The translations under genes were made by a program, and so were the position numbers. A DNA stretch of 64,000 nt from a bacterium (GTDB taxonomy: Bacteria > Krumholzibacteriota > Krumholzibacteriia > Krumholzibacteriales > Krumholzibacteriaceae), in the NCBI GenBank assembly GCA_020350885.1, contig CP070727.1:3732738-3796737 (forward strand). Direction: 5' to 3'. A model generated the notes under the pieces. That model was not told the DNA's origin. It searched no databases and saw nothing but the letters and a program-made list of their open reading frames with translations. Positions 11,843-55,646 of this stretch are shown here, one piece after another (position 1 is the first letter of the stretch; each line of letters opens with the position of its first letter).

Positions 11843-11861
11843 ACAAACCTCCCTGCAGGTG

Positions 11862-17078: not shown

Positions 17079-17118
17079 TCCCCAGGTATACCACCTGCCT
17101 TGATCGGTCAGGCATTCT

Positions 17119-30528: not shown

Positions 30529-30589
30529 GAGAAATGGTTTCCGCTTCAGCCCGTGTATATATGTAGCATAGGGATCTATTTCAAACTCA

Positions 30590-34636: not shown

Positions 34637-35040
34637 GATTTCACTCCCTTGAATAAGCTATTAGCATACATTAGTTTAACCGATTTTCTTCATTTTGTCA
34701 ATTCAATGCTTCGTGGAGGGCCGGCAGTGCTCATGGGGAACCGGTGCAGCACTCACCGGCCGTACCTTTCGAATGAGACTGTTTCGTATATAATAATTAT
34801 ACCTAGACGTCTCGGTCGCAAGGGCTAGGCGAGAAAGAACTTGTCCCCGAGGTGCTGATTGGATATCTTCCAGTATGAGACGCTTCCGATCCCGTTTCGG
34901 GGAACGGTATCGATTCCCGGAACGTGCGGATCGAAGCCGTCACGACGAGGAGAGAGTCACCCCACCTATATTCCCCTAAAATACCCTCGAACCGTGTGTG
35001 ATAAACACGATAGGGGCTACGCAAGAAGGAGGGAGATGAG

Positions 35041-37296
35041 ATGCTTCTGCGTAAGAATGTCGTTGTCATGCCGGTGTTTTGTGTGATGCTCCTCGCCGTC
35101 GCATCCTCGGGCATGTGGGCCCGCGATCCGCTCGACAAAGCGGCGGGAAAGGCGCATCAGAAACCTGAAAGGATCCGTGTCATTGACGGTAGCAACGTCC
35201 ACGATGTCGGCGAGCTCCAGGTGCACGTGGCCAACTGGGGACTATTCGGCTCGTTCCCATCTTCGAATTTTCCGTGCTCGCACGCCCCTTCCGCACAGTG
35301 GCCGGCCGGCAGCGGTATCGAGCACCTCTTCGGCGCCGGCCTCTGGGTCGGTGCGATAAAGAACGGGGTTCCCCACGTATCCACGTCACTCTTCGAGTTC
35401 GAGTTCATGCCCACGGATGATACGCTCGATGTGATCTACCGGACGTTCGAGGGGGCGCCGAACGGCGCCCGCATACCCTCTCCGTTCGCCGATGATGACG
35501 GTGACGGGGCGAGGGACGAGGACTTCCTCGACGGCCACGACAACGACGGTGACGGTCTCATCGATGAGGACTTCGCCGCCGTCTCGACGCAGATGTTCAG
35601 CTGCTGGTTCACCGACGACCAGCCGAATGCAACGGGCATCTACCCCGAGCACGAACCCCTCAATCTCCTTGTCAGGCAGGAGAGCTACCAGTGGGATGAT
35701 CCCCGCTTCGACGACTTTGTTGGAATTAAATTCACAATCACCAATACTGGCAACGTTCTGCTCGAGGATGTCCATCTGGGGTTCTTCGCGGACTGCGATG
35801 TCGGTCACCGAGATCGCCCGCAGTACTGGGAAGACGATGCCGAAGGGAGCTGGCGGGGAGCCCGCTGCACCGATATCGGACCCGCCCATCTGAATATCGG
35901 GTACTGTTACGATGCCGACGGGGACGAAGGCATGACAACGAGCTACTTCGGCGTTATGCTGCTCGGCCACACCATCGACCCGCTCGGTCTCCGGGCCCCG
36001 CGCCACGTCGAGCTCCATGCCTACCGGGTATTCAGCGGCACGCAACCCTACGAAAACGGTGGTGATCCCGTCAACGATTTCCAGCGATACGAAGTGCTCT
36101 CCACGTGGCGCATCGATGCAAACAGCCCCTCACCGAGGGACGTACGGTTCGTGATGAGCACGGGATCATTCCCGGAGCTCCCCCCCGGTGAGACGATCGT
36201 CATCCACATCGGACTCGTCGCCGGCGAGGGGCTCGAAGGCATGCTCGATAACGCCGCCTCGGCCCAGCGTCTCTTCGACGGCATCTGGTACGACTTCGAC
36301 GGTGACCCGGCGACAGGCATCGCCGGCAGGGAATCCCCCGTCTACGGTCCTGCACAGAACGTGTACATCGACGAATGCCGGCTGGATATCATCCAGCCCA
36401 TCGACGTCCCGGCAGGATCGGTCGTTTGGATCAACAACGACTGCCAGCGCGAGACGGAGCGTAAGCATATATGCTCATACGGCAGTGCCGACAGCCTCCT
36501 CTACCGGACCGGTGTCGCCGGCAGGGAAACACAGATCAACTGGTTTCTCGATGTCCCACCCCTTTCACTGCCCGTCCTGGACATCCGGCCGAGGCTGTGT
36601 CCGAATCCATTCCACCTGAAATGGATCTATGGCAACAGGGGAAGGAAACGGCCCTGGGGCGCCTTGATCCGCATTGCAATCCTCGGGATGGAGAACTTCG
36701 ACGTCAGGGATATCGACATCTCCTCACTGCGTCTCGAAGGTGTCGAGCCGCTGCGCTGGGGACGGCGCTACCGGGACGTCTCGAGGCCGGTTACCGGAAA
36801 AACCGGGTGCGAGTGTACGGCCGAGGGCCGCGACGGCTACCGCGACCTCATACTGCGATTCAGGGCCCGGGAGATCGGTGAGGCCCTGAGGGAGACGGGA
36901 CCTTTCGAGCCGGGCGATGAAAGGATGCTCACACTTACCGGCCTGCTCGAGGACGGGACGGCATTCACGGCCTCGGACTGTGTCGTATTCATTGGAAGAT
37001 GCCCACGGCCCGGGAGACCGGAGCCTCCGGAAGACAAGGACGAGCAGATACGGATATCACCGAATCCATTCAATCCGGTTACACGGATCACGTTCTATCT
37101 GGCGGAGCCCCGGCACGTCAGGATCTCCATCTACGATGTATCTGGACGGCTGATCGAACAACTTGCAGACGGGTGGCGGGAAGCGGGTGAACATACAATC
37201 GAATGGAGAGCGGGAGGTATCGCAAGCGGAATCTACTTCCTGCACATGGACGGAGGCACTATCTCCCAGACGCGCAAGATGATCCTATTGAGATGA
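35041..37296 (+). CDS. Secreted protein with acidic Ca-binding-like DxDGD repeats and T9SS C-terminal sorting domain, function unknown
   Basis: 751 aa; signal peptide; DDDGDGARDEDFLDGHDNDGDGLIDEDF; C-terminal ISPNPFNPVTRITFYL...ISIYDVSGRLI...GIYFLHM; GGAGGGAG RBS. Confidence 0.55.
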   Translation: MLLRKNVVVMPVFCVMLLAVASSGMWARDPLDKAAGKAHQKPERIRVIDGSNVHDVGELQVHVANWGLFGSFPSSNFPCSHAPSAQWPAGSGIEHLFGAGLWVGAIKNGVPHVSTSLFEFEFMPTDDTLDVIYRTFEGAPNGARIPSPFADDDGDGARDEDFLDGHDNDGDGLIDEDFAAVSTQMFSCWFTDDQPNATGIYPEHEPLNLLVRQESYQWDDPRFDDFVGIKFTITNTGNVLLEDVHLGFFADCDVGHRDRPQYWEDDAEGSWRGARCTDIGPAHLNIGYCYDADGDEGMTTSYFGVMLLGHTIDPLGLRAPRHVELHAYRVFSGTQPYENGGDPVNDFQRYEVLSTWRIDANSPSPRDVRFVMSTGSFPELPPGETIVIHIGLVAGEGLEGMLDNAASAQRLFDGIWYDFDGDPATGIAGRESPVYGPAQNVYIDECRLDIIQPIDVPAGSVVWINNDCQRETERKHICSYGSADSLLYRTGVAGRETQINWFLDVPPLSLPVLDIRPRLCPNPFHLKWIYGNRGRKRPWGALIRIAILGMENFDVRDIDISSLRLEGVEPLRWGRRYRDVSRPVTGKTGCECTAEGRDGYRDLILRFRAREIGEALRETGPFEPGDERMLTLTGLLEDGTAFTASDCVVFIGRCPRPGRPEPPEDKDEQIRISPNPFNPVTRITFYLAEPRHVRISIYDVSGRLIEQLADGWREAGEHTIEWRAGGIASGIYFLHMDGGTISQTRKMILLR

Positions 37297-37391
37297 TATG
37301 GATCCGGCTGGAGCGATTACAGAAACGCGCGCCCGGTCTTCATGCATAGAAATGCTAAACGACCGGGCGCTTTCTCTATCCTCATACCCGA

Positions 37392-37706
37392 TTACAGATC
37401 TTCCACAAATATCACCAGGGCGGTGCCCGCTGTCACCTTCCCCATATGCCGGTGCTCTTTGCCCGCCGGTATGAAGAGACCGTCTCCCTTTCTGTACTGG
37501 TGGGTCACTGTTTCGAAAACGATCTCGAGCTCCCCCTCGAGGACATACCCGAAATGCCCCCTCTCGCACCAGTGCGGCTCCATTTCGTTCGAGTACTCGA
37601 CGAGCCGAAGCCGTTTCCCCTCGTGCACGAAGGCCTTCTGACGCATCCCCGTTATCGGGCTTTCCCAGCCGATCGATCCGAAGTCAATCCTATAATCCAT
37701 ATGCAC
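37392..37706 (-). CDS. Cupin-domain protein
   Basis: 104 aa; conserved-barrel pattern HxH...E ... H (HWCERGHFGYVLEGELEIVF...GKEHRHMG). Confidence 0.5.
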   Translation of the reverse strand: MHMDYRIDFGSIGWESPITGMRQKAFVHEGKRLRLVEYSNEMEPHWCERGHFGYVLEGELEIVFETVTHQYRKGDGLFIPAGKEHRHMGKVTAGTALVIFVEDL

Positions 37707-37802
37707 CCTTCCATGGCGGTCCGTATCTCAAGGTTTTCTGAACCGGCCGTCAACGATGCGAACGTTCCCCATCGCGGTACCGATGATCGGCCGACACACG
37801 TT

Positions 37803-38882
37803 CTACAACACGCCCCCGATGACGATCCCGTAGGCATCTTCGGAGTCGAATATAAACCAATGGGCCTGTGGATCGATCCGTGCATAATCGAGCTGCACCA
37901 TGATCCGCCCGAAGTCCCATCCAAGACCGATTCCGAAGGTATTGAAGCGTTCTCCCGGGAAGACCTCCTCGCACGCTCCAAAGCGTAGCTGCAGCATCTC
38001 GAGGATCGAAGCCTCCATGCCGAAGGCCCAGCCATCCTCATTGTTCGAGCCGGTGCCGCTCACGAGATCGAAATCGACCGAGACACCGAGGATCGCCACA
38101 CGGCGCCGCAGGGCATCGGTCAGCATCTCGTTCGACGGCGTGCCGAGATCGAGGCCGAAACCGACACGCTCCGCCCCCGGTTGCTCGGCGATGGAGCTGG
38201 CACCAAACTCGATACTTTCACCGAGATTCGAGACACTCGCACCCACGCGGGGACGCACGGTATAATCGCTCGACCGGAAGATATCGGCGGAGATAATAAC
38301 ACCGAGATCGAAGGCCCACAGCGAATAGTCCAAAACTGTGTTCGCATCGAGATACTTGGTCGTCACACCTACACCCATCTCCCATATCCCAGCCCTGAAT
38401 CCACCTGCACATGCACCGGAGACATAATAATCGGTATCATCTATCCCCTCCGCCTGACCCTCCGGAAGGTATATGGTTCTCATCCAGTCCACTTCCGCGG
38501 ACATCGTCGAATAGCCGATCGATCCCCCGACCATCCACCCTCCCTGATCTTCCCCCGACAGCCATCGGCGGCCTCCGGAAATGCGAGTATCGGTAAACGT
38601 CAGGTGAGAGCTCCAGTCGTTGATGCCGGTGCCGAGTGTTAACATCTGGCACCATGCGAAGCTCGCCGGATTGTAGTATCCCGTTGTAAATCCCATGATA
38701 TCCGAAGCCCCTGCGCCACCCATCCCAATGTTGCGTACACCCCGAGGGAAGAATGCGGCCGTCAGCACTCTCGTTTCTACCCGCTCAAACGGTGTCTGAG
38801 CTTGTACGGCGTGAGAGAAAAAAGCCAGAACCGCAGCACCGATAATGATACCTCTTCCTACATCTCGCCTATGGGATACCAT
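37803..38882 (-). CDS. Outer-membrane beta-barrel protein, PorV/PorQ-like (T9SS-associated) family candidate
   Basis: 359 aa; signal peptide; N-terminal GVRNIGMGGAGASD...YYNPASFA motif resembling PorV/PorQ-type N-terminal signature; aromatic C-terminus. Confidence 0.4.
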   Translation of the reverse strand: MVSHRRDVGRGIIIGAAVLAFFSHAVQAQTPFERVETRVLTAAFFPRGVRNIGMGGAGASDIMGFTTGYYNPASFAWCQMLTLGTGINDWSSHLTFTDTRISGGRRWLSGEDQGGWMVGGSIGYSTMSAEVDWMRTIYLPEGQAEGIDDTDYYVSGACAGGFRAGIWEMGVGVTTKYLDANTVLDYSLWAFDLGVIISADIFRSSDYTVRPRVGASVSNLGESIEFGASSIAEQPGAERVGFGLDLGTPSNEMLTDALRRRVAILGVSVDFDLVSGTGSNNEDGWAFGMEASILEMLQLRFGACEEVFPGERFNTFGIGLGWDFGRIMVQLDYARIDPQAHWFIFDSEDAYGIVIGGVL

Positions 38883-39022: not shown

Positions 39023-39051
39023 TTGACCTCAAAAACGGTTACTTCTATAAT
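39023..39051 (+). promoter_or_regulatory. Near-consensus sigma70-type promoter TTGACC-N17-TATAAT upstream of precursor-peptide ORF
   Basis: TTGACC 39023-39028, 17-nt spacer, TATAAT 39046-39051; AT-rich UP-like region upstream (38930-39020). Confidence 0.5.
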
Positions 39052-39138: not shown

Positions 39139-39270
39139 ATGGTATTCGAATATGAAGACACCATGGCAGGCGATCTCGGAGGAGCAATTACCGCAACATT
39201 GTGCAGGATAGGTTTCACACCTGTTTGCGGAGGTTCATCACCTGAGACCATCTCCGGTTGCGTTACCTAA
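39139..39270 (+). CDS. Candidate RiPP precursor peptide (lanthipeptide-like), 43 aa: MVFEYEDTMAGDLGGAITATLCRIGFTPVCGGSSPETISGCVT
   Basis: Not in ORF track (<60 aa). GGGAGGTG RBS 7 nt upstream of ATG; in-frame TGA immediately upstream; acidic leader with GG motif followed by a 28-aa core with 3 Cys and 7 Ser/Thr; first ORF of an operon encoding kinase and LanC-like proteins. Confidence 0.55.
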   Translation: MVFEYEDTMAGDLGGAITATLCRIGFTPVCGGSSPETISGCVT

Positions 39271-39304: not shown

Positions 39305-39323
39305 GAGCACAGTGCTCGTTTTG
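39305..39323 (+). terminator. Weak hairpin + U-tract (GAGCA-CAG-UGCUC-GUUUUGU), possible partial terminator/attenuator after precursor gene
   Basis: 5-bp stem, 3-nt loop followed by T-rich run, 35 nt downstream of the precursor stop codon. Confidence 0.25.
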
Positions 39324-39448: not shown

Positions 39449-39486
39449 TCTCTGAAACCGGATTGAAATATCACTCGAGGACAAGA

Positions 39487-40689
39487 ATGCTCGACAAGAC
39501 ATTTCGCTTGAATCCCGTCTTCTCGATAACACCGATCGAAGAGCTGACGGAGGAGCAGCGGAGGAACTTCCGGCGTATCCTTTCGGGTAAGGGTATTTAC
39601 AGTCTGCTCCATGCCCCCAGAGAAGCGAATTTCACGGTGAAGGCCTTGAACCGTCCCCTCTCCGACTTCCTCGAAGATCTACGGGAGCCAACCGTACTGA
39701 CGGACCTTCTGGAGAAATTTGGAGAAGAATCCGATAAGGATGTGCAGCAGCTCATCACACGTTTTCTCCTGGATGGTGTCCTGGAGGTTCGTACACGCGG
39801 AGGTTTTGTAAGCGGCATAGAGGCCCTCAATTCGCTGCTGTCCCTCTCGGAACCGGTACCCGTCCCGGCGGATGCCGACGATTCGAACTACATCCGCAGG
39901 ATCTCCAGCGCGGCGCTCGATATCGCCATGAAGAGCACCTACAAACATACCCGTGATATCGCCTGGATCCTGTATAATTTCAACCGCATGCCGATGAACC
40001 GGGCCCGCCGCCGGCAACTGCCGGATGAGGAAGCAGTGCTCGACTTTCTCGGCCTGGACGGGGATGGCTGCTGGACCGGGATGCCCGATACGATACGGCC
40101 GGTACCTCCGGAGACTGATGAAGACGGTAATTTTACGCCGTTCTTCCAGGTCTGGAGATCATGGACGATCAGCCCAAAGCGAGGGAAAAAAAACGAACTG
40201 GGGTATAAGGTGTATGTAAGTGCCCTACCCGATGAAACACCCGAGGTATTCAAGATAGTGAGGGAACATATCGCCGATGCCGGGGCCAGCTCGATGAAGA
40301 TCGGAAGGGTGGGTTCCGCCATGCTACGCTGCGACAAACTCCTGGTGTATTTCAAGAGCATCGAGACGGCCATGGAGTTTGGTAGGGAAATCGCCAAATT
40401 GACCACCGCGTTTCATGGACAGGGCGTCCCGTTCACGTATCCCCTGGAACCGGAGAACCGCCTGATCAGTATCGGTGTCGATCCGCCCGGAAAGTTCAGC
40501 ATCGTGAATAGTTGGCGCCGCTATGTGACCGATAAACTCGCCGTTGCCATTCAGGGTGCCCACAGGGAGAGAGCGCAGGATCCGCTGGGCTACATTCGCA
40601 CAAATATGAGATTATTTGGCGTTGATATCGATGAATGGCGCCCCGCAAGCAGAGACTGGACCATGGAATTCGACCTCGATACCGAATAA
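39487..40689 (+). CDS. Unknown 401-aa protein, candidate stand-alone phospho-Ser/Thr lyase (OspF/SpvC/HopA1-like) of a split lanthionine synthetase
   Basis: Start MLDKTF with GAGGA RBS (ORF track starts 39463); C-terminal half contains GYKVYVSALPDE resembling the SpvC/OspF catalytic GDKFHISV Lys motif; gene order (this - kinase - LanC) mirrors domain order lyase-kinase-cyclase of class III/IV lanthipeptide synthetases. Functional call is inference. Confidence 0.4.
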   Translation: MLDKTFRLNPVFSITPIEELTEEQRRNFRRILSGKGIYSLLHAPREANFTVKALNRPLSDFLEDLREPTVLTDLLEKFGEESDKDVQQLITRFLLDGVLEVRTRGGFVSGIEALNSLLSLSEPVPVPADADDSNYIRRISSAALDIAMKSTYKHTRDIAWILYNFNRMPMNRARRRQLPDEEAVLDFLGLDGDGCWTGMPDTIRPVPPETDEDGNFTPFFQVWRSWTISPKRGKKNELGYKVYVSALPDETPEVFKIVREHIADAGASSMKIGRVGSAMLRCDKLLVYFKSIETAMEFGREIAKLTTAFHGQGVPFTYPLEPENRLISIGVDPPGKFSIVNSWRRYVTDKLAVAIQGAHRERAQDPLGYIRTNMRLFGVDIDEWRPASRDWTMEFDLDTE

Positions 40690-40693: not shown

Positions 40694-41938
40694 ATGTCAG
40701 AAAAGAAAAAGAAGCATAACCGGCGCATCTGGCGCTTATCCTCCGATGTCGTAATACGCCCGGTGACGGAGATGCCGGAGGAGGCAATCGAACAGATAAC
40801 ACAGAACAAAAGGAATCCGGAGAACTACTTCGGAATCGAACGGAAGAAATCACGAGCACAAGCCAAGATCGTCAACAAGGACGTCATAGATGTACTGAGG
40901 GCTTTCGGGGATGAGGGCAAGACCTACGATGAGGTGCTCGAATACTTTCTCGAACTCAAGGGACTCGAGCGGGATGAGCTGCACCCGGCAATGTCTAAGA
41001 TGGTAAATACCTTCATTGGCAGCAATTTTCTGGTCGAGGGAAGGAGATACGACAAGGACACTTCCGAATCCGTCGAGCCCAGCTTCCAGGATGGTGACAG
41101 GTGGCTCTCATACAGGATACTCAAGAATGTCCACGTTATTATCGACACCGAGATCTACCAGGTGGAACATATTCCCTCCGGCGTAACGAGGGCCTTGAAG
41201 ATCACTCAACCCACGTTTCCGCGAGAGAAGATGAAGAAGAAGATATTCAAGCGGCTCGAGCACGAATTCAAAACCATTCAAAAGATCAAACATCCTAATA
41301 TCATCAAGGTCCACGATTACGGAATGCACGAAGGGCGTATGTACGGGATCCTCGACTGGGTGGATGGAAGATCGGTATACTCGCACGCCTACGATTCGGG
41401 CACTCCCCCGCATGATGGCCTGCTGCTCGAACTGTCGATCGAGTGTCTCGAGGCGCTCGGTGCCGTTCACAGGGCACGGTACCTCCATGGCGACGTTCAC
41501 ACGAGAAACTTCCTCATAAAGAACGGTCATGTCTGCCTTATCGATTTCGGTCTCTCACGCCCCATAAAGGTCAGAAAGGCGGAGGAGCGCAGGTACGTCG
41601 AGGGCGGGGTTATACGATTCATGCCGCCGGAGTATGTGCAGTACAAGCTCGAGGAAAAGAAGGGGTTATGGGGGAGTATCGCCGGTGAGATATACTCGGT
41701 GGGAGTAATGATCTTCTCGCTTTTCACCAGCACATACCCGTACAAGTGGTCGTTCTATCGCAAGGATTTTATGGAACATATTCTAAACGACCCGCCTCCG
41801 AGTTTCGAGGAGTGCGAACGCGACCCCTGGCCGGAACTCGAAGCCGTACTGCACAAGGCCCTGGAAAAGGATCCGAAAGACCGGTTTGCCAGCGTGGACG
41901 AATTCAGCCGGGCATTACAAAAACTCTCCGTCCCCTAA
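40694..41938 (+). CDS. Ser/Thr protein kinase (Hanks-type) with ~190-aa N-terminal extension; candidate lanthipeptide kinase component
   Basis: ATG 5 nt after upstream stop (translational coupling); kinase subdomains: RALKI (VAIK), HPNIIKV, HGDVHTRNFLI (HRDxxxxN), DFGLS, PPEY (APE), DPKDRF. Confidence 0.75.
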   Translation: MSEKKKKHNRRIWRLSSDVVIRPVTEMPEEAIEQITQNKRNPENYFGIERKKSRAQAKIVNKDVIDVLRAFGDEGKTYDEVLEYFLELKGLERDELHPAMSKMVNTFIGSNFLVEGRRYDKDTSESVEPSFQDGDRWLSYRILKNVHVIIDTEIYQVEHIPSGVTRALKITQPTFPREKMKKKIFKRLEHEFKTIQKIKHPNIIKVHDYGMHEGRMYGILDWVDGRSVYSHAYDSGTPPHDGLLLELSIECLEALGAVHRARYLHGDVHTRNFLIKNGHVCLIDFGLSRPIKVRKAEERRYVEGGVIRFMPPEYVQYKLEEKKGLWGSIAGEIYSVGVMIFSLFTSTYPYKWSFYRKDFMEHILNDPPPSFEECERDPWPELEAVLHKALEKDPKDRFASVDEFSRALQKLSVP

Positions 41939-42001: not shown

Positions 42002-43132
42002 ATGAACGCAACAGCCTGGCAGGAGAAAGCCCTGAAGGGTCTCAAGAAGCTGTCCGATTGCCGATTCGAGAGCTTCAATATGATACACGGCCCGCCGTAC
42101 CGCTCGCTGAACAACGGAGCTACAGGCATCGCATATACATTCTGGAAGGCCGCCAATGTCCTGGATGATCCCGAATGGCTTCATCACGCACGCCTCTGGA
42201 TAGACCATACCGTGGCCCTGCCCGAGGATGACCGCATCGTCGGCCTTCCGGAGGATGAAGGGGATTCGGCCGAAATAGAGATCGAGGACTCGCTCTATCA
42301 TGGTAACAGAGGTCTTCAGTTTGTGAAGATGCTTGTGGCGTATGCACAGGCGGACGATTACAACGCCAACAAGTTTTTACGGCAATTCGAAAAGCCGACA
42401 GCCAGGAGATCGGAGGCTCAGGAGCTTCTCCAGGGCGTCCCGGGCCGGTTGGTGGGCTTTGCGATTCTCTACGAAGAGACGGGGTACGATTATATAAAGG
42501 AAAAGGGCGACGAGGTCACCGAGGAGCTGCTGGGGACGGCGGATCTATCCATGAAGGATACCCTCTGGGGCAACAACCGGTATCTGGGCATCGCCCACGG
42601 GCGCGCCGGCATACTCTATTCTCTTCTTTTCTGGTCGAGGGCTTCCGGATACGTTCTACCGGACCGTATACATGAAGAGGTTACAAAGCATGCTGCATTC
42701 GGGATAGAGCAGGAACACGGGCTCAGATGGCCCATACAGGAGCACAAGGAGGATAGGTTCATGGATAGCTGGTGTCACGGCACCCCCGGACAGCTCCATC
42801 TGTGCTCCCTCGCCTACGAGCTCTACAAGGAGCCGCTTTTCCTGAAAACTGCACGCGGCGCCGGGGAATCTATCATTCACATCAAGGGATATCCACTTGG
42901 GCACCTGTGCTGCGGGTCAGCCGGTGCAAGCTACGCACTCCTCTCCCTTAATCGGATAGATCCCGGCGGGCCATGGCTGGACCATGCCATCAGGTTCGCC
43001 GAGATGAGCGAGAAAGCCCAGTTGATAACGCGGTTCAGGCTCGGTCTGTATACCGGATTGGCCGGCGTTGTATGCCTGATGCTCGATATGACAAATGTGG
43101 CCGAAGCGCGGCAACCGGGATTTCAGGGCTGA
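42002..43132 (+). CDS. LanC-like lanthionine cyclase domain protein
   Basis: 376 aa; LanC signature blocks: NGATGIAY, LYHGNRG, IAHGRAGILY (GxAHG), SWCHGTPG (WCxG), HLCCGSAG (position of CHG block, here C-C-G). Confidence 0.7.
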   Translation: MNATAWQEKALKGLKKLSDCRFESFNMIHGPPYRSLNNGATGIAYTFWKAANVLDDPEWLHHARLWIDHTVALPEDDRIVGLPEDEGDSAEIEIEDSLYHGNRGLQFVKMLVAYAQADDYNANKFLRQFEKPTARRSEAQELLQGVPGRLVGFAILYEETGYDYIKEKGDEVTEELLGTADLSMKDTLWGNNRYLGIAHGRAGILYSLLFWSRASGYVLPDRIHEEVTKHAAFGIEQEHGLRWPIQEHKEDRFMDSWCHGTPGQLHLCSLAYELYKEPLFLKTARGAGESIIHIKGYPLGHLCCGSAGASYALLSLNRIDPGGPWLDHAIRFAEMSEKAQLITRFRLGLYTGLAGVVCLMLDMTNVAEARQPGFQG

Positions 43133-43171: not shown

Positions 43172-44236
43172 CTACCTGGATAGACCATCCATTATCAATC
43201 GATAGAGCCGGACTTCCGGCTTTACTACTATCTCGGTCCTACCCGTCAAACCGTATTTGAGGAAGGTCCGGTCGCCGTTCTCCTCTTCCACCCAGGGTTC
43301 CTCTATCGCTATTTCGACCTCGAATGTGGATTGACCACGTGAGACCATCGGGACCGATGCAATCCTGCCCACCCTTCCCTCGAAGACCTTGTACTCCCTA
43401 TGGGGATAACTATTCAAGAATATCTTCGCGTCCTGGCCCCGCTGTACATCCGTGATATCGGTTTCACCGATATCGGCAGAAAAGATCACCGTATCAAAGA
43501 ATCCGATCTCCATAACCGGCTTCCCCTTGCCGACCATGGTACCTACCAGGTTCTCCGGTGCAGCGGTCAGTACGGTCCCTTCCCCTGGTGCCAGTACAAC
43601 GGTCTCATCCAGCTTCTTCTTCGAAAGTGCGAAGGAGCTTTCCGCCAGCTCGAGGTTTCTGCGCTTTTCCTCTATCTGCCGTTCGAGCTGCTTCTTGAGA
43701 ATCTGGTTTCTGGACTTGAGAATCTCGTAGTATGACTTGCTCGACTCGTAGCCGAGTTTCGCCCTCTCGTACTCCTCGGCGTTGACCAATTCCTTATCGA
43801 AGAGCTTTGTTACCCGCTCGAGGTTCTCCTCGTTGAACTTCATTCGTTGCTCTGCTTCGTTGAGATCGGCCAGTATCATGCCGAGCTCGTATGACTTGCT
43901 CGTCGTCAGATTCCTGTATTCATCTTCCGCTCTCCTGAGCTCGGAACGGGCATTTGCCAGTATATTCCCCGCGCGCTTAACCTCCAGCTCGATCTCTTCA
44001 GAATAAATGGTGAAAAGGGTGTCGTTTCTCGCAACCTTTTCTCCCTCAATGACAAAGACTTCTTCGACTATGCCGTTGATTCTCGGCGCGACACCGACCT
44101 GCCGTCCCGGCGAGACCATGCCAAAACCTTCGACGGTCTCATCCATCTTGCCGAAGTAGAGAACGGCGGCGGCACAAATGAGGATCGAGATCGCAATATA
44201 GAAGGCAAATGCGAATACTTTCGTTACCCGTTTCAT
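43172..44236 (-). CDS. HlyD-family membrane fusion protein (secretion/efflux adaptor)
   Basis: 354 aa; N-terminal TM anchor, long coiled-coil (heptad EE/KR-rich 100-200), beta-barrel/lipoyl-like C-terminal region; downstream of ABC exporter gene. Confidence 0.75.
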   Translation of the reverse strand: MKRVTKVFAFAFYIAISILICAAAVLYFGKMDETVEGFGMVSPGRQVGVAPRINGIVEEVFVIEGEKVARNDTLFTIYSEEIELEVKRAGNILANARSELRRAEDEYRNLTTSKSYELGMILADLNEAEQRMKFNEENLERVTKLFDKELVNAEEYERAKLGYESSKSYYEILKSRNQILKKQLERQIEEKRRNLELAESSFALSKKKLDETVVLAPGEGTVLTAAPENLVGTMVGKGKPVMEIGFFDTVIFSADIGETDITDVQRGQDAKIFLNSYPHREYKVFEGRVGRIASVPMVSRGQSTFEVEIAIEEPWVEEENGDRTFLKYGLTGRTEIVVKPEVRLYRLIMDGLSR

Positions 44237-44281: not shown

Positions 44282-46081
44282 CTACCGGTTCTGCGACTTC
44301 CTCGTCTTCGTTATCCTCGACTCACTTTCACGTGTCATTTGATCCCACAACATCCTGTATATCCCGCCCCGGTTCATGAGATCTTCATGGATACCTACCT
44401 CGGCGAACCGCCCCTCATACAGGACATAAATTGCATCCGCATCAATAATGGAAGTTAATCTGTGGGCCACGATGATTGTGGTTTTCTTCTCCATGAGTGG
44501 TTCCAGGGCCCTGTGAATAAATAATTCCGATTTCGTATCCAGTGAGGACATCGCCTCATCGAGAATCAGAATCTCCGGATCCTTCAGTATCGTTCTTGCT
44601 ATCGAGATCCTCTGACACTGGCCGCCCGAGAGCCGCAGGCCCCTTTCCCCCACTACGGTGTCGTAACCGTCGGGAAGGCTCGTTATGAAGCCATGGATAT
44701 CAGCCTTCCTGGCGGCCTCCAGGATCTCGTCCTTCGTGGCCCTCCTGTTACCATACATGATGTTCTCTCGTATCGTCGTATTGAACAGGATGGTTTCCTG
44801 TGATACCAGACCAATGTGCTGCCGCAGGGAATGCAGCTTGATCTCCCGCAGATCTGTGCCGTCAATTAGAACCCGACCCGATGTCGGATCGTGGAACCTG
44901 CTTATGAGATCGACGATCGTGCTCTTTCCAACGCCGCTCGGACCAACGACGGCGACCCTCTGCCCGGGATCGATATGCATGGAAACATCGATCAGAACAG
45001 GCTCGTCGGGGTTATAAGAGAAATGAACCTTTTCGAAATCGATTTCACCCCTCACCCTCTCGATTCTCCTGCTGCCGGGAATATCAACGATCATCGGCTG
45101 GACATCGAAGAACTCGAAGATCCTGTCGATCGCCGCACGTGCCGTCTGGATCGAAACATTGTACTGCGCAAGCCTGAAGATCGGCCTGAAGAGCCTGCCC
45201 ACGTATGCATAGAAGGCGACGAAGCTGCCCAGGGACAGGGCACCCGCCATGACCTGGCGGGCCCCGTATACAAGTACGATTACAGGACCGAGTGTGGATA
45301 GGAAGACGGCGATCGATGCCGACACCGCTCCCAGTACACCCAGGGTTATTCTCAGATTTATGAGTTCCTTGCTCTTTCGTAACAGACGTATCGCTTCGAA
45401 TCTCTCCTTGACGAAGGACTGGATGAGCTTGATGGACGAGAAGGTTTCCTGGAAAAAACTTACTATCTCTGCCGATTTATCGCGGGTCTCCCTGCTCTTC
45501 TTCTTTATCTTGCGCCCCAGGTAAAACTGGGTGATGAACAGGGCAGGGAAGATCACCATCGACAACAGAGCCAGCTTCCAGTTGAGGAACAGCATGATAA
45601 CAATGATGATGGCAATTGATGCGATATCGGTCACGAGGGCTATCAGTGTTGTGGTGAGAACATCCTGCACTCTCGATACATCGTTGTTGACCCGCGTAAT
45701 GATTTCACCTGTCTTGGTCTCGGTAAAAAATCCTATGTGAAGATGCTCCAGGTGCCTGAAAAGGTCGAATCTTATGTTGAAGAGGATCCTCTGACCTACA
45801 TACTGTATCAGGTAGTTTATGACCACCCTCATTCCACATCTCAGAAGAAAGAGCGCTATCAGGGCGATGACGATTACATTTAAAAGAGGTATGTTCCTGT
45901 CGATTATCACGTCGTCGATCACTATCTTCATTGCAAGCGGATCGAGCAGGGATAGCCCGGCGACGATCATCATCAGGAAGGCAATGCCCAGCTCCAAACC
46001 GAGAAACGGTTTGATGTACCTGATGATTCTCTTCGACGATTTCTTCGGAGCATTTTCTCTATCTGATTTCATACAAACCAC
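44282..46081 (-). CDS. ABC exporter, fused TMD-NBD (type I exporter, MsbA/peptide-exporter-like); no N-terminal C39 peptidase domain
   Basis: 599 aa; six TM helices then Walker A GPSGVGKST, Q-loop, signature LSGGQCQR, Walker B ILILDEAMSSLD, H-loop. Confidence 0.85.
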   Translation of the reverse strand: MVCMKSDRENAPKKSSKRIIRYIKPFLGLELGIAFLMMIVAGLSLLDPLAMKIVIDDVIIDRNIPLLNVIVIALIALFLLRCGMRVVINYLIQYVGQRILFNIRFDLFRHLEHLHIGFFTETKTGEIITRVNNDVSRVQDVLTTTLIALVTDIASIAIIIVIMLFLNWKLALLSMVIFPALFITQFYLGRKIKKKSRETRDKSAEIVSFFQETFSSIKLIQSFVKERFEAIRLLRKSKELINLRITLGVLGAVSASIAVFLSTLGPVIVLVYGARQVMAGALSLGSFVAFYAYVGRLFRPIFRLAQYNVSIQTARAAIDRIFEFFDVQPMIVDIPGSRRIERVRGEIDFEKVHFSYNPDEPVLIDVSMHIDPGQRVAVVGPSGVGKSTIVDLISRFHDPTSGRVLIDGTDLREIKLHSLRQHIGLVSQETILFNTTIRENIMYGNRRATKDEILEAARKADIHGFITSLPDGYDTVVGERGLRLSGGQCQRISIARTILKDPEILILDEAMSSLDTKSELFIHRALEPLMEKKTTIIVAHRLTSIIDADAIYVLYEGRFAEVGIHEDLMNRGGIYRMLWDQMTRESESRITKTRKSQNR

Positions 46082-46218: not shown

Positions 46219-47520
46219 CTACGCGGCGTTTCCGATTGGTAGTGATTTGCTCATATCCAGTCGCTGAACCGACGCAACGAGCCTGTACAGTGTTATCTGA
46301 AGAAGCAAGCTGGCGCAGAGGAGCATACCGTACCTGCTGTACGTGATCCAGTGATCGAACCGGTTGAAGACGAACACACTCGATAATGCACATGAAACGA
46401 CCGTCGCAGCAGAGAGCAGAATAGACTGGAATCCGTGCGAGTGCCGGAACGAGTGTAGTTGCTTCAAGAGCACGGCCTGGCAGAACGGGAGGAAGACGAA
46501 GTAATGCGGCCACGACGTCTGCAGGATGAACGGCAGGGCAAGAAAGAGCGTCACAGCGGACAGCGCCTCCTTGTCCCGTACCGACGACTTCTGGATCAAC
46601 CACAGCAACGCGAGATTCGCGCAGGCGACCGCATAACCGAGCAGTTTCAGCACAACGGCCGCTGTCCCCGTTGCTCCCGAGGACATGAATCTGAGAGCAA
46701 CGTGGGCGAAATACTGTGAATTCGGATTCTGTGCGATCAACGAAGAATCCGGTATCGCCGCGAAGGATTCCCTGTGAAACGTGAGCCACTGATACGGTCC
46801 CATGACCAACGCCGGAGAGACAAAGAAGAGGATCAAAAGAGCAACGAGGAATGAAGACAACACTCGGAGATCACGCCGGAAGACGTAATACAGGATGAAT
46901 ATCCCGGGATAGTACTTGATCGATGTACCGAGGGCGAGCAGGAATCCTGCGAGGACGCGCCGGTCGCGCCTGTATGCATGAAATGAAGCGATGATGCAGA
47001 GGGTCACGAGTACACTCACCTGTCCCCACTTGAAGTTATGGAGCAGGGGGAGGGATGTAACGAATAGAAACACGTAGAGGGTGGTGCCGCGCCAGGAAAG
47101 ACGCAGCAGGTCCTTGAGCGGGACGATGCAGAGAAGTACCCCAAGCACGATCTGTAGGGCTCCCCAGAACCAGGTCGCCGCCGGGAGGGGTGCCGAACCG
47201 AATGGGACGAGGAGAAGTGAGAAGAAGGCGGAGTAGAGGTATCCGCCGACCGGCCTGGCGGATGAGAGGACGATTCTCCCCATCGTGTGAAAGTGCCTGA
47301 CGAAATCGCAGAATAGCGTGTCGCAATGATCGATTGCCGAGACGAATCCGGAGACACTTTTCCATTCTACCCGGTAATACACCGCTACGAGCGCGAGTGC
47401 CAGGGACACAGCAACCAGAGTCGCTTTACACTCCCAACGGGTACCGGCATTCGTAACCAACAACGATCGTCTCCACCGTTCGCCCGGATCGAGGCGATGA
47501 CCATATCGCTTTCTGCACAT
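46219..47520 (-). CDS. Polytopic membrane protein, possible GT-C-like (DUF2029/GT87-like) glycosyltransferase
   Basis: 433 aa, >10 hydrophobic helices, conserved-looking loop motifs; N-terminal extent uncertain. Confidence 0.35.
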   Translation of the reverse strand: MCRKRYGHRLDPGERWRRSLLVTNAGTRWECKATLVAVSLALALVAVYYRVEWKSVSGFVSAIDHCDTLFCDFVRHFHTMGRIVLSSARPVGGYLYSAFFSLLLVPFGSAPLPAATWFWGALQIVLGVLLCIVPLKDLLRLSWRGTTLYVFLFVTSLPLLHNFKWGQVSVLVTLCIIASFHAYRRDRRVLAGFLLALGTSIKYYPGIFILYYVFRRDLRVLSSFLVALLILFFVSPALVMGPYQWLTFHRESFAAIPDSSLIAQNPNSQYFAHVALRFMSSGATGTAAVVLKLLGYAVACANLALLWLIQKSSVRDKEALSAVTLFLALPFILQTSWPHYFVFLPFCQAVLLKQLHSFRHSHGFQSILLSAATVVSCALSSVFVFNRFDHWITYSRYGMLLCASLLLQITLYRLVASVQRLDMSKSLPIGNAA

Positions 47521-47628
47521 GGTAGCACCCCGACAATTCTATTGACAATCGATAACCATAATCTACAATGGATCATACAATTAGAGTGGCATAATCCTGC
47601 CCTACGACCTTTGAGCAAGGAGGTTTTG

Positions 47629-48789
47629 ATGCCGCAACCAATTGATTATGACGAAGATCGTATCAAACGATTGATACAGGAAAAGCAGGCAAACGAGATC
47701 GAGCTGGCCTGGGATCTTCTGGAGGTCTTCAACACCAACGAACCACTAGTCGGTCCGCTGAGACAGCTCGTCAGCTTTGCGGTGGATGAGCTGGAGGAGA
47801 TGAAGAGGGAGAGTCATATCGGACATCAGATCGTCAAGGCGGCCTGGAACAAGGAGGTCGGGGGTCCCAAGAACAAGACATTGATAAATTACGGGAATCT
47901 CATAAAGATACGGAACAACGTACCGGCTCTCAAGGCCGAGGAGTGCAACGACATTATCCGCTACTACGGCGAAGTCGTCGAGATGGCGGCAGAGAAATAC
48001 AGGGCACAAAAGAAAGCAGCAAAGTATGTACCCCCCACAGGCACGCTGAGGAAATACGACGTGCTGGATACAGAGAAGGGTACATTCCGCAGGGGAGGTG
48101 ACCCCGTCTGGAAGGTCGGACGACAGCGCGATAAGAAGCCTCCGACTGCCCCGGTGGAACATCCGTACAGCGCTCCATATGATTTCATATACAGCCAGAA
48201 AGGCGGCATAGCGAATATCACACTCAGAGACACCAGCACGGTTCTCAGGATCGACAGGGTATTCGGGTTGGCGCTGGCCGGCGATATCTCCGGCACGACG
48301 ACCGATGCACTGTTCTTTATCAACCGCTACGCAAACCTGTTCCGCGCCCAATTCAATCAGTATCCTCTTTTTGCAGGGGCGCTCGATGATCCCATCTACC
48401 AGTTACTTCCTCTTGCGACACTCGTGGCTGGCGGGCACCATTCGCTGGTCGAGTCGGCTCTGTCCCTCACGATCAACAGGCATCTCACCGGTGTGAACTA
48501 CAAGATCGGTTTGTACACCTCGCTGCTTCCCGACAACACGAATCACCCAACGCGGGGTGAGATATGGAATAAGCTGCACCTGGCCGAAACGAATATGCGC
48601 AACCGCCTCATGCTCATCTACTACAAGAGGCCGACCCGGATCGGGGGATGTTTCCTCTTCGCCAAGAAGGGAATTGAGAAACACCAATTCGAGCAGCTGG
48701 CGACGGCGAATCTACACCTGTTGCATACCTTCATGCAGTGTCATTTGTGGCCCACGGAGGAGTATGTCCGGCGCCTCTTCGAGGCATAG
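47629..48789 (+). CDS. Hypothetical soluble protein (386 aa) adjacent and convergent to the T6SS PAAR-like gene; possible effector/cargo or immunity candidate
   Basis: Start MPQPIDYDEDRIK with AAGGAGG RBS (ORF track starts 47326); no recognisable motif. Confidence 0.45.
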   Translation: MPQPIDYDEDRIKRLIQEKQANEIELAWDLLEVFNTNEPLVGPLRQLVSFAVDELEEMKRESHIGHQIVKAAWNKEVGGPKNKTLINYGNLIKIRNNVPALKAEECNDIIRYYGEVVEMAAEKYRAQKKAAKYVPPTGTLRKYDVLDTEKGTFRRGGDPVWKVGRQRDKKPPTAPVEHPYSAPYDFIYSQKGGIANITLRDTSTVLRIDRVFGLALAGDISGTTTDALFFINRYANLFRAQFNQYPLFAGALDDPIYQLLPLATLVAGGHHSLVESALSLTINRHLTGVNYKIGLYTSLLPDNTNHPTRGEIWNKLHLAETNMRNRLMLIYYKRPTRIGGCFLFAKKGIEKHQFEQLATANLHLLHTFMQCHLWPTEEYVRRLFEA

Positions 48790-49224: not shown

Positions 49225-49911
49225 TCACGAATCCTTCTTCCTGACCTTCCCCAGTGCCGTATTCAATCCGACGACCGGCAATTCCACACCGGTTGTACCT
49301 TTCTCTTCATCCTTACGGATCAATTGCATCGTATAATCACTCTCGCTGACACGGAAACGAAGGACGTAATCCAGATTCAACGGGACGGCACGCTCGAGTG
49401 AGCTCATGATGCAATCGACGACATCCGGGCGCTGCCTCAATACGGTCGCCTGTGCCATCTTCAGCTCGACATCGATGGTCAGGGTCCACACGGTCTCGGC
49501 CGGGCTCGAGCCCAGAGCGATTTCCTGGCCGATGGGTGCACTGCCAAGGGCAAAACCGGAACCGCTCGATTCAACGAGCGGCCTGCTCCCGATACGCCTG
49601 CATTCGAGACCTATCGTCACAGGCGCCCGCCCTACCTCCTCGGCCTCCTCCCTGCTCGTGGCGAGCAGTATCGAGAATCCGAGACAAACCACCGTCTGCA
49701 CGAGTTTGCGCAGGCTGTCCTGATCGTTGCTGGATGAGAGAATGTAGGCGCGCACATGACGCCACACGCGGTATTCATAGTAGGTCCGCAGCAATGCAGT
49801 CACATCATTGTCCTCGACCGTCTCATCCCGTGGTGTCGAGGAGACGAAGCGGCTCTCCACCCTGCCCCGGATGTAACTATCCCGTTCGATGGACAGTGCT
49901 CCGGTAGACAT
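49225..49911 (-). CDS. Hypothetical T6SS-associated protein (possibly baseplate TssG/TssE-like)
   Basis: 228 aa, operon position between VgrG-downstream gene and PAAR-like gene; no clear motif. Confidence 0.3.
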   Translation of the reverse strand: MSTGALSIERDSYIRGRVESRFVSSTPRDETVEDNDVTALLRTYYEYRVWRHVRAYILSSSNDQDSLRKLVQTVVCLGFSILLATSREEAEEVGRAPVTIGLECRRIGSRPLVESSGSGFALGSAPIGQEIALGSSPAETVWTLTIDVELKMAQATVLRQRPDVVDCIMSSLERAVPLNLDYVLRFRVSESDYTMQLIRKDEEKGTTGVELPVVGLNTALGKVRKKDS

Positions 49912-49915
49912 CCCC

Positions 49916-51430
49916 TTACCTCACTTCCATGATGATACGGCTTCCGATCGGGGCACGGTCGTTCAGGTAACCTTGAATCATAGCAATGTCCCTTATGTCA
50001 AGCGGCTTGCCTCCCCTGTTCCTCACATAGACGACCGTGACCCGCTGCCGGGCGCCATCGATGACCCGGAGCTCCGTAACAGGATCGTGGATATCGACGT
50101 CCCGGTATCCGAGCCCGGTGATGAGTTCCTCGATCGTCGACAACAGCGTGTCCCGGTACAGGAGCTTTTGAGGTGGAATGGCATGGCCGAGTATCAAACG
50201 ATTGTACCAGTCCGATTCGTCCGATCTCTCACAATCGCCGCCCCCGAAGCAGGGCATGATCGTGAAAGCCGACTGCATCAGTGTCGAGGCCTTGTGAAGC
50301 GGCTGGAAGATATCCGTCTCGTTGTATGTGTAGTTGTATCCCGACAACGCGTTCCCATGCGTCATCCACATGAAGAACTGTTTCTTCTTCTCGGTGTCCT
50401 TCTCTCCGGGAAGGCTGTAGTGATTCAGCACCGAACCCGATGGATCTATCTGAACGGAGAAGACCGGGCTGCCCGCATCCACCGGGCCGAGGAACTCCTT
50501 TTTCCCCGCCTTCCGGAAGGGGAATATTCCTGCCGCTCCGAGCGGTTTCATCCCCGAGCTACGCACAAAATCGGCAAATGTCTCGTTCGGTTCCCATGCC
50601 TTGAGATCGACGTTCATGATAGGCAGGACGTTTGCGAAGATCGATATCCCGGAAAGCAGGGGCTCCCCTACGCCAGCCTCGTGATAGAGCCTCCTGAGGG
50701 ACTCCTCACGGAGACGAAAATGCAACTCAAGCGAATCCATATCGAGATCCACCGTCTGCCCGTCGAAGGATTCGACCTGGGGACCGAACTCCAGCCGGAA
50801 CACGAAGGGTGAAAGAAGCTGATATGCATAGTTCAACGGGAAGCAGAGACTCTCCGCCGCTCGCTCGGGCACCCATGACGAGAGCGCCCACTTGGGCTCG
50901 AGATCGAGGGAACGATCCCGCAGGCGCAGCTCCACGGTGATTTCCCGGCCCGTCCTCTCCATGGCCCGGCTGATCGCAATAAGCTCTTCAGGCGTCCACT
51001 GTCGCTGCTCCCTCTTGTAATCCCAGGGAAGCACGGCAAAATGGATACTGACCTTTTCCCACCGGTCGTTCGGCTTGAGCTCTACCGTCTTTTCGAACTT
51101 GGATATCTCTTTACCTTGTTCCACGTCGATGAGCGGGATCGTTACATCCACAATGGGCGTGAAGAACGCTATCTCGTAGGGGGTTTCGGAAGCCGATTCC
51201 GCATCCGTTTTCAGAGAGATGAGATCGCCGGGGCGCCACCGCTCCGCCCCCTGCTTCATCCTCGTGATCCACGATTCGCTCGAAAGAATCGAGACCGCAG
51301 GCAGGGCCGTGAATCCCGGAATGAAGAGTCCCGTCGTATCCTGAAAGAAATCACCGATGATCTTGCTTTCGGTGAAGCTTTTGATCTCGGCGAGCAGTTG
51401 TTCGAGATGATCATCCTTTTTCGCTGGCAT
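49916..51430 (-). CDS. Hypothetical T6SS-associated protein (possibly baseplate TssF-like)
   Basis: 504 aa, operon position immediately after VgrG-like gene; size compatible with TssF; assignment tentative. Confidence 0.3.
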   Translation of the reverse strand: MPAKKDDHLEQLLAEIKSFTESKIIGDFFQDTTGLFIPGFTALPAVSILSSESWITRMKQGAERWRPGDLISLKTDAESASETPYEIAFFTPIVDVTIPLIDVEQGKEISKFEKTVELKPNDRWEKVSIHFAVLPWDYKREQRQWTPEELIAISRAMERTGREITVELRLRDRSLDLEPKWALSSWVPERAAESLCFPLNYAYQLLSPFVFRLEFGPQVESFDGQTVDLDMDSLELHFRLREESLRRLYHEAGVGEPLLSGISIFANVLPIMNVDLKAWEPNETFADFVRSSGMKPLGAAGIFPFRKAGKKEFLGPVDAGSPVFSVQIDPSGSVLNHYSLPGEKDTEKKKQFFMWMTHGNALSGYNYTYNETDIFQPLHKASTLMQSAFTIMPCFGGGDCERSDESDWYNRLILGHAIPPQKLLYRDTLLSTIEELITGLGYRDVDIHDPVTELRVIDGARQRVTVVYVRNRGGKPLDIRDIAMIQGYLNDRAPIGSRIIMEVR

Positions 51431-51446
51431 ATGCTACACCTGCCGA

Positions 51447-52955
51447 TCAGCCAACATCCAACTTCATGGTCTTGAGCTTTATACCCGTCGGTGCATCGAG
51501 TGTGATCGATCCCGTTGCCGAGAGCTCGATGTCACTGGAATCCATCTTGACCGTCGAGCCGGCTGCATCGATCTCGATGAGCTTTTGCTCCATCCGGATC
51601 TCGACGTCCTTGTTCTGCATCGTGATCTTGTCCTTGCTGATATGGATCGTCTGGCCGTCGACCGTCTGCAATACGAGATTCGCCTTGGGCTCGCCGACCT
51701 TATCCCCGGCCGTTACACAGCCCAGCACCAGCGGATCCATGTCGTTCTGCCCCCAGACGACCAGCACCGTGTCACCCTGCCGCGGCGGTATGAAGTGCAT
51801 ATGCTCCTTCCCCCAAGAGGGGGCTGCGATTCTCAGCCAGGGTGTCACCTTCTGGTTGCCGTCCCACGGGAACATCACACGGACACGGTTGAGATCGTCG
51901 TTCGTCTCTTCCACAACGGCCGTTGAGGTTATCAATGATCTCTGATGCTTGATCTCATCGGATAGGACACCTTCGGGATTCACCGCCTCGAAACGCCAGA
52001 TCACCTCATTGGTGCTATAGTCACCGGCACACTGGACAGTGCGGATAATCCCGGTTTCTGCGCCCGCCCCGGCACCGGCGCCCTGCACCGTGACTTTGGC
52101 CCCGAGCTCGACGGGCGACAGCACGCGCCCCTCGATCATGAACCGGCCGGCCGCCTGCGATCGCAGAAAGCGGTTTGCGGAATGTTTCGTGTCGTCGTAG
52201 CTCGTATCCTCGTGGACGACATGGAGGAGCCTCTTTGCCTTTGCCTTCTTCCGAAGGTCGATGGAGGCATCCTGGATCGAGCCAAAACTCCCACCCTTGA
52301 GCTCGTACTCAGAGGTCTTTGGTTTGTTCTTCACGTACGGGATGGATGTGAGCTCGATCTGCTCAGCCCCCAGTCGCGTATGAATGAGAAACTCCTGGAT
52401 GTCCTTATCGAGCTTGAGCGATTTGGACTGGGGCGTCGGCCCCACGCCGATATAGACCTTGTCCCGGGCACACCAGATCTGTCCCCCGAACTCCGACAGG
52501 AGCCTCTTGATGAACCGAAGTGCCGACTCCTGGTACTGAATGGCGAGCTTTACCTTGATGCCGTCGTAGCCGCCCAGGTATTCGACGCTCACCCCCGACG
52601 GGGTCACACTGGAGACGATATCCTTGATCGTCTGGTCGGCGAAGACGTTGGAGTCGATCGTTCCATCGAACTTCAACAGCTCGTCGCGCACCGTGAGCCG
52701 AAAATCCCCCGAAGAGGAGTCATACGTTATGGAATCCACGGTGCCGGCAAAACGCCAATCGCCGACCGAACAGGTCACCTCCTCGCCGAGGGCTCCCTGA
52801 ACGGAGGCGTAGGCGTCAAGATGAGGTTCACTCGTGGTCTGGCGGGAGTGCAAGTTTAAATGAAGCCATCCGATTTCGCCGAGTGCCTGAAAAGCGTCGA
52901 AACCGGTTACGGTGTGCTTACTCAAAAATTTCGGTTTGCCCTCGAAGGTGAGCAT
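51447..52955 (-). CDS. vgrG: VgrG-like spike protein (gp27/gp5 fusion)
   Basis: 502 aa; central RQGDTVLVVWGQNDMDPLVLGCV matching VgrG/gp5 OB-fold motif (GQEVxVxFxxGDPDRPxIxG); C-terminal beta-helix-like repeats (IHISKDKITMQNKDVEIRMEQKLIEID...). Confidence 0.7.
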   Translation of the reverse strand: MLTFEGKPKFLSKHTVTGFDAFQALGEIGWLHLNLHSRQTTSEPHLDAYASVQGALGEEVTCSVGDWRFAGTVDSITYDSSSGDFRLTVRDELLKFDGTIDSNVFADQTIKDIVSSVTPSGVSVEYLGGYDGIKVKLAIQYQESALRFIKRLLSEFGGQIWCARDKVYIGVGPTPQSKSLKLDKDIQEFLIHTRLGAEQIELTSIPYVKNKPKTSEYELKGGSFGSIQDASIDLRKKAKAKRLLHVVHEDTSYDDTKHSANRFLRSQAAGRFMIEGRVLSPVELGAKVTVQGAGAGAGAETGIIRTVQCAGDYSTNEVIWRFEAVNPEGVLSDEIKHQRSLITSTAVVEETNDDLNRVRVMFPWDGNQKVTPWLRIAAPSWGKEHMHFIPPRQGDTVLVVWGQNDMDPLVLGCVTAGDKVGEPKANLVLQTVDGQTIHISKDKITMQNKDVEIRMEQKLIEIDAAGSTVKMDSSDIELSATGSITLDAPTGIKLKTMKLDVG

Positions 52956-53011
52956 ACGAATACACCTCCACCTCTTGTGCCACCGGGCTCACATTGTGAC
53001 GTTTCGGATGT

Positions 53012-53434: not shown

Positions 53435-53509
53435 GATTCAACCTCCTTTATAAACGATTAACGGTTACAATCGCTCCTGCGGTACGGACCGATACGAGCA
53501 GCCCACTCG

Positions 53510-55620: not shown

Positions 55621-55646
55621 GTGAAACCTCCAGCATTAATGCCGGC

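Follow-up and report, generated by a model that had tools for sequence, protein, structure and literature searches.

The LanC-like protein encoded at positions 42002-43132 of the window, as we call the whole 64-kb stretch of DNA analysed here, is probably the cyclase of a three-protein lanthipeptide synthetase that comes with its own precursor peptide and exporter. Its gene closes a run of genes on one strand, in the order precursor, protein X (a candidate lyase), kinase and LanC. The LanC protein itself is an ordinary member of its superfamily with a known variant, the Cys-Cys-Gly (CCG) motif, and because that motif is known the Cys-for-His swap by itself teaches nothing new. The operon around the gene, which the original prediction had missed, is less ordinary than the motif, and the value of the system lies in this context and not in the swap.

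The LanC-type cyclase and its Cys-Cys-Gly block

The reading frame at 42002-43132 (plus strand, ATG start) encodes 376 residues, and its assignment as a LanC-like cyclase is supported by Pfam, phmmer and a homolog alignment. In the Pfam scan, residues 35-371 match PF05147 (LANC_like) with an E value of 2.8e-36 and 125 bits against a cut-off of 23 bits, covering model positions 6-345 of 350. This agrees with the original prediction of a LanC-type cyclase, and the three sequence blocks on which that prediction drew are all present. The IAHGRAG block (residues 197-203) holds the putative catalytic His199 (42596-42598), SWCHGTPG (residues 256-263) holds the putative zinc ligand Cys258 (42773-42775), and HLCCGSAG (residues 301-308) holds the putative zinc ligands Cys303 and Cys304 of the CCG motif (42908-42913). 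In phmmer alignments with solved LanCL2, LanCL1 and Arabidopsis GCR2, the stretch lCCGsaG falls column for column on iCHGtaG or lCHGsaG with no register shift, and the other blocks are in register as well, WCHG on WCHG and AHG on AHG, which bears out the predicted homology of the CCG and CHG blocks. The catalytic histidine of the superfamily is His212 in NisC and His219 in LanCL1, and both His199 and Cys258 align to the corresponding LanCL residues. Since CCG aligns exactly on CHG, Cys304 stands where LanCL1 and LanCL2 have their His zinc ligand. An all-Cys (Cys3) site built from Cys258, Cys303 and Cys304, raised before as a possibility, is on the basis of the sequence the most likely reading.

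The motif is fixed among the relatives of this protein. A homolog search covering about 5.8 billion proteins returned 33 close homologs at 40-75% identity, every one from metagenomes or metagenome-assembled genomes (MAGs), with Latescibacteria and Zixibacteria as the only phylum-level names. H199, W257, C258, G260, C303, C304 and G305 are invariant in their alignment. A profile search with the LanC alignment against a word-indexed database added only three close members, with which CCG is kept in 36 of 36, and a distant group of LanC-like proteins of ~440 aa that also reads CCG. Judging by this invariance across homologs, the motif is neither chance nor a sequencing error. Across the family, Cys258 is followed by His or Asn; at this position, that of LanCL1 His277, His and Asn are the options of LanCL and LanM-type proteins and Tyr occurs in stand-alone bacterial LanCs (PMC9934072). 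One ortholog, 73% identical to the window LanC (locus L019, 3938-5121), is broken over two reading frames, through either a frameshift or an assembly error.

The earlier description of a Cys3 variant as an unusual intermediate state is not supported. A ‘CCG motif’ has been described for ProcM and marks ProcM-like LanMs (PMC10027976, PMC8524650), and ProcM-clade enzymes are stated to carry three Cys zinc ligands (PMC13060382). Cyclases have been sorted as CCH, CCC or unknown, with the CCC cyclases tabulated beside LanB-, DUF4135- and lyase-type dehydratases and falling into three independent subclades in bacteria (PMC11251773). In a scan of one genome per GTDB species, CCG was found in 15 of 17 distant LanM-like matches, from cyanobacteria, Acidobacteriota, Chloroflexia, Planctomycetota, Verrucomicrobiales, Bacteroidota and Mycolicibacterium, a sample that is biased by the retrieval pattern but still shows CCG to be common. 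In the literature the variant is tied to higher reactivity and substrate tolerance of the cyclase, and is not presented as a stage on the way to the class III domains that lack the ligands. Because CCG is widespread and linked to reactivity and tolerance, not decay, the idea of an intermediate is unsupported. We propose that the Cys3 site is an ancestral, fixed trait of a kinase-associated LanC lineage, which probably arose separately from that of the ProcM clade, in line with the independent CCC subclades (PMC11251773). By analogy with ProcM-type enzymes, the zinc-thiolate at this site should be more nucleophilic, and the cyclase more tolerant in its choice of substrate.

A different arrangement of the site, in which Cys304 is not a metal ligand, is unlikely. 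The zinc would then be held by two cysteines and water, or His301 would serve as the ligand, or Cys303 and Cys304 would have a redox role. His301, the first residue of H-x-C-C-G (window 42902-42913), is present in 32 of the 36 family members, and a His two residues ahead of the CC pair recurs in 10 of 15 CCG-type LanM-like proteins (L021-L037); the CHG proteins seen (two LanMs, LanCL1/2 and GCR2) lack it. However, Cys304 is invariant and falls exactly on the ligand His of LanCL1/2. His301 varies, being replaced by D, N or G in four members and by T or S in the kinase-LanC fusions described below, and the three published Cys ligands of the ProcM clade also argue for the Cys3 arrangement. A register shift, or a His elsewhere as ligand, was rejected as the main reading on the same grounds and survives as part of this minor alternative. 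In the preferred Cys3 site, His301 may partner the extra thiolate from the second coordination shell.

Candidate precursor peptides, exporter and gene order

A candidate lanthipeptide precursor of 43 aa, MVFEYEDTMAGDLGGAITATLCRIGFTPVCGGSSPETISGCVT, is encoded at 39139-39270 (plus strand) behind a strong GGAGG-type ribosome-binding site, within a 580-bp gap that precedes X. A good sigma-70-like promoter element, TTGACC-17-TATAAT (39023-39051, plus strand), lies ~90 nt before the gene and was identified by consensus matching, with 11 of 12 positions in agreement. A weak terminator-like hairpin, GAGCACAGTGCTC followed by GTTTTGT (39305-39317, plus strand), stands after the gene; it is a pattern match with a folding energy no better than that of shuffles (z -0.9), suggestive at best, and was not kept as a terminator.

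The peptide opens with a short leader, conserved as M-x-F-E-Y-x-D-T, and continues with a core rich in Thr, Ser and Cys; the leader peptide of the system, MVFEYEDTMAGDLGG, is the putative recognition stretch. Ahead of the same enzymes, homologs of the precursor are encoded in L003 (four copies) and in L005, L007 and L019 (two each), and a weak precursor-like small ORF lies ahead of X in L016. With E values of 1e-17 to 1e-25 for the precursor HMM, the conserved leader and a C-x-V-G-x-T-x-x-C core define a family in six loci, at up to four copies per locus. There is one precursor in the window and two to four in related loci, with variable cores on the common C-x-V-G-x-T-x-x-C scaffold. The HMM found nothing further elsewhere in the window or in any locus fetched, and precursors were not detected in L004, L018 and L020.

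On the other side of LanC, and convergent with it, lies a gene for a 354-aa HlyD-family membrane-fusion or adaptor protein (43172-44236, minus strand; Pfam HlyD_D23 and HlyD_3, with partial NCBIfam secretion-adaptor matches). It is accompanied by a 599-aa ABC exporter with fused permease and ATPase (44282-46081, minus strand; ABC_membrane E 2e-46, ABC_tran E 3e-34), in which Pfam detected no C39 peptidase domain. No leader protease was found in the cluster or nearby. The HlyD and ABC genes likewise adjoin LanC in L003, L004, L005 and L007.

The linkage of X to the cyclase is conserved: of 12 distinct loci, 11 have X immediately upstream of LanC or of a kinase gene followed by LanC. X-kinase-LanC in full is found in eight (the window, L004, L005, L006, L007, L015, L018 and L019). 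In L003, L016 and L020 X and LanC have no kinase between them, and the kinase of L003 is ~6 kb off. One MAG, SRP141376_co1_20, holds four paralogous X/LanC loci (L012, L016, L018 and L020), and the lack of an intervening kinase in two of them points to a common kinase acting in trans. The exception to the linkage is a Zixibacteria chromosome (CP070766; L001/L017, 4145-8134), where a LanC(CCG) ortholog stands without X, precursor or exporter and has ahead of it just a kinase fragment of 183 aa and a kinase-TPR protein of 735 aa. This locus may be decayed or rewired.

Given this gene order, it is highly improbable that LanC partners an unlinked LanB or other dehydratase and that the neighbouring kinase and X are unrelated to it. 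The order X-kinase-LanC is kept among homologs that share 40-75% identity and come from several phyla, and in more distant relatives the kinase is fused to LanC with X still upstream. A scan of the large ORFs in the 64-kb window turned up no LanB or LanM dehydratase, and on this result a class I pathway was rejected. What speaks for an unlinked dehydratase is a distant kinase-LanC(CCG) fusion, P0034, that adjoins a full-length LanB. This fusion (655 aa) lies in L008 (225-6900) together with a luciferase-like oxidoreductase, a 53-aa ORF and the LanB (1035 aa), and because fusion and LanB adjoin, the locus appears to combine two dehydration routes.

The remainder of the window gives some indication of the host. 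Three large proteins at 26802-38882 carry C-terminal sorting domains of the FlgD_ig or Por_Secre_tail type and a PorV/PorQ-like outer-membrane protein is encoded at 37803-38882 (minus strand), which together indicate a host with type IX secretion, of the FCB group. Among ORFs without family matches, the region at 49225-57923 (minus strand) encodes a VgrG-like protein (Phage_GPD and Phage_base_V, 51447-52955) as well as a double AAA+ ATPase of the ClpV/ClpB type (55647-57923), and it resembles a locus for type VI secretion or contractile injection. The stretch at 5497-18798 encodes a BcsA-like GT2 glycosyltransferase with a PilZ domain (5497-7716, minus strand) and a polyphosphate cluster of CYTH-CHAD (11862-13478), PPK1 (14859-17078) and double-domain PPK2 (17119-18798) proteins, all on the minus strand. 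A GT87-family glycosyltransferase ORF (46219-47520, minus strand) overlaps by ~195 nt the start of a 487-aa ORF (47326-48789, plus strand) for which no family match was found.

The kinase, the candidate lyase and the proposed pathway

The kinase is of the Hanks Ser/Thr type and is encoded at 40694-41938 (plus strand), taking ATG 40694 as the likely start of a 440-aa ORF that opens at TTG 40616. Its kinase domain (~41153-41890; Pfam Pkinase, E 6.2e-25) has PF00069 as best family at 88.5 bits, and APH matches over a 37-residue stretch only, at 31 bits. The β3 Lys (ALK), the HGDxHxxN catalytic loop and IDFGL are kept across orthologs, and the match of this protein to the LanL model covers the kinase part of the model. 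Ahead of the kinase domain is an N-terminal domain (~40718-41032) that resembles a RiPP recognition element (RRE) and is homologous to that of X, with an hhalign probability of 92% and an E value of 5.8e-7 against the X family.

Protein X is encoded by a 408-aa ORF (39463-40689, plus strand) whose likely true start is ATG 39484, and it has no significant family match. Residues ~8-128 (39484-39846) are predicted to adopt the RRE fold. The family is large, since an X profile retrieved 1,493 clusters at 50% identity, 987 of them with E<1e-30, and nearly all of the 150 matches listed are stand-alone proteins of ~390-400 aa. No Pfam model reached threshold for the window X and 10 other members scanned, NCBIfam gave nothing for two X-family proteins scanned, and a PDB profile search with X returned no match.

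From its predicted structure, we propose that X is a HopA1/LanY-like phospho-Ser/Thr lyase. This identity stays below significance by every sequence method, with RamC_N at E 0.0056, under the cut-off, and HopA1 at E 0.0042 at best, in one X family member. In the family alignment K249, Y251, R289 and Y296 are invariant and K279 is near-invariant. Their spacing equals that of R187/K219/R229/Y236 in CaoY and K104/H106/K136/R148/Y158 in SpvC, residues found to be catalytic by mutagenesis (PMC9486802, PMC10604976); the mapping was made from spacing and strand positions and not by superposition. X has a Tyr at the equivalent of SpvC His106, which is His in OspF, and a Lys of the OspF/LanKC type where LanY has Arg.

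Distant, high-G+C members of the X family, apparently from actinobacterial sequence, extend this picture. In two distinct loci (L009, and L010/L011, near-identical contigs from sister samples that we counted as one) X lies directly upstream of a kinase-LanC fusion of ~800 aa. These fusions start with the same RRE-like domain and match the LanL model only from position ~192 onward, and therefore have no lyase domain. They read LCCG and WCNG, so that the Cys3 motif is common to the X-associated, kinase-linked LanC lineage. Directly upstream of the X homolog and fusion in L011 is a 206-aa ORF (4470-5090, plus strand) in which consecutive Ser-Pro-Cys repeats (…CGPVSPCGVLSPCGALSPCGGFSPC…) precede a tail resembling a coiled coil. 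Its product may serve the kinase-LanC fusion systems as a long protein substrate; the counterpart in L009 is not Cys-rich.

In the pathway that we propose, the FEYxDT leader of the 43-aa precursor would be bound by the RREs fused to both dehydration enzymes. The Hanks-type kinase would phosphorylate Ser and Thr residues of the core, and X would eliminate the phosphate to leave dehydroalanine or dehydrobutyrine. On LanC, a Zn2+ ion held by Cys258, Cys303 and Cys304 would activate the core Cys thiols for Michael addition to the dehydro residues, with His199 acting as the acid that protonates the enolate and His259 stabilising the enolate oxygen, as His277 does in LanCL1. The HlyD/ABC pair would then export the product.

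The LanC-like protein could also be read as a thiol transferase of the LanCL type, which would add a small thiol to lyase-made dehydroamino acids in proteins, kinases for example, for repair or regulation. The family profile matches LanCL2, LanCL1 and GCR2 with E values of 3e-34 to 5e-28, compared with 6e-10 to 5e-7 for LicM2, CuvL and NisC. The WCHG block places a His at the LanCL1 His277 position, LanC is always linked to a protein kinase, and human LanCLs have been placed in the kinase-linked class IV clade (Walker et al., PMC7268733), a placement that the closest profile match to LanCL fits. We nevertheless regard this reading as very doubtful. Immediately ahead of the enzyme genes, small Cys/Thr-rich precursors with a common leader are conserved, RREs occur on lyase and kinase alike, and there is a dedicated ABC/HlyD exporter. 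Together the precursors, RREs and exporter point to a secreted, modified peptide.

Relation to known lanthipeptide systems

The pathway logic is closest to class Vb, the split LanK, LanY and LanC systems (SmoK, SmoY and SmoC; Pei et al. 2022, as cited in PMC11186320 and PMC12291118), of which SmoA is reported to be the only characterised member (PMC11186320, PMC12291118, PMC12328550). As in class Vb, the work would be divided in the window system among three proteins, namely a kinase, a candidate lyase whose HopA1-type fold comes from predicted structure, and a LanC that stands alone. They differ in several respects. The class Vb kinase is an APH-type LanK (PF01636), whereas the window kinase belongs to PF00069 and is related to the kinase domains of LanL and LanKC, and for this reason it falls outside class V as defined by its kinase. 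LanY is a HopA1 protein (PF17914) with Arg, whereas X is under the HopA1 Pfam threshold and keeps Lys. Unlike class Vb, the window system has a predicted N-terminal RRE on both lyase and kinase, and its Cys3 cyclase may be a further difference. Its hosts are uncultured Gram-negative bacteria of the FCB type (Latescibacteria- or Zixibacteria-like), whereas class V has been reported only from Actinobacteria (PMC12328550).

With the class IV LanL enzymes (VenL, SgbL and CuvL) the window system would share the same three activities, and it has the same kinase family and a LanC module that bears zinc ligands. LanL is a single polypeptide with an OspF-like N-terminal lyase and a CHG motif, in contrast to three proteins and CCG here. 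The NCBIfam LanL model is the second-best model for LanC, but scores 69.2 bits for LanC and 33.7 bits for the kinase against a cut-off of 650, so with three proteins and scores this far under the cut-off the system is not LanL. Nor is it LanKC, the class III enzyme whose cyclase lacks zinc ligands, because the window LanC has a Cys at all three positions.

The CCG-motif class II enzymes ProcM, SyncM and NpuM share the replacement of the His ligand by Cys (C...CC) with the window LanC. The local H-L-C-C-G and W-C-H-G sequences are alike, as is the presence of several variable precursors per locus in some window relatives, up to four. The ProcM-type cyclase, however, is the C-terminal domain of a LanM of ~1100 aa with a DUF4135 domain, whereas the window LanC is free-standing, its proposed partners being a Hanks kinase and a lyase that is likewise a protein of its own. 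LanC aligns with the NCBIfam LanM model only over the C-terminal model positions 589-928, at 75.8 bits against a cut-off of 304, and LanC scores 45-65 bits against CCG-type LanM domains compared with 100-120 bits against LanCL. Because there is no DUF4135 domain, the protein is not a ProcM-type LanM. By sequence, the closest solved relatives of LanC are eukaryotic LanCL1, LanCL2 and GCR2, with E values down to 3e-34. They share the WCHG block with its His at the LanCL1 His277 position and a functional link to kinases and to dehydroamino acids made by phospho-lyases; they differ in having CHG ligands, in adding glutathione to proteins and in having no precursor peptides, RREs or exporters.

The operon may be a new variation on the split kinase/lyase/LanC systems. 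No earlier description of the exact split architecture was found in the literature searched, which left out most subscription journals and so is weak evidence; with literature coverage incomplete, the system may already have been described. We put forward more tentatively, as a possibility we would not favour over its contrary, the broader reading that a HopA1/LanY-like lyase and a Hanks kinase, each fused to an RRE, form an undescribed synthetase architecture together with a LanCL-like Cys3 LanC. It would belong to a large hidden superfamily that bridges classes IV and V and was the source of the eukaryotic LanCL-kinase partnership.

For the family, the operon would extend split kinase/lyase/LanC biosynthesis past Actinobacteria to uncultured phyla of the FCB group, place recognition elements on both dehydration enzymes, and provide a link to a large unannotated family of candidate lyases (X, ~1,500 clusters at 50% identity). 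A free-standing Cys3 cyclase of 376 aa should also be much simpler to purify, crystallise and mutate than ProcM-type enzymes of ~1100 aa, and its small size makes it a possible convenient model for the effect of the third thiolate on zinc-thiolate reactivity and substrate tolerance.
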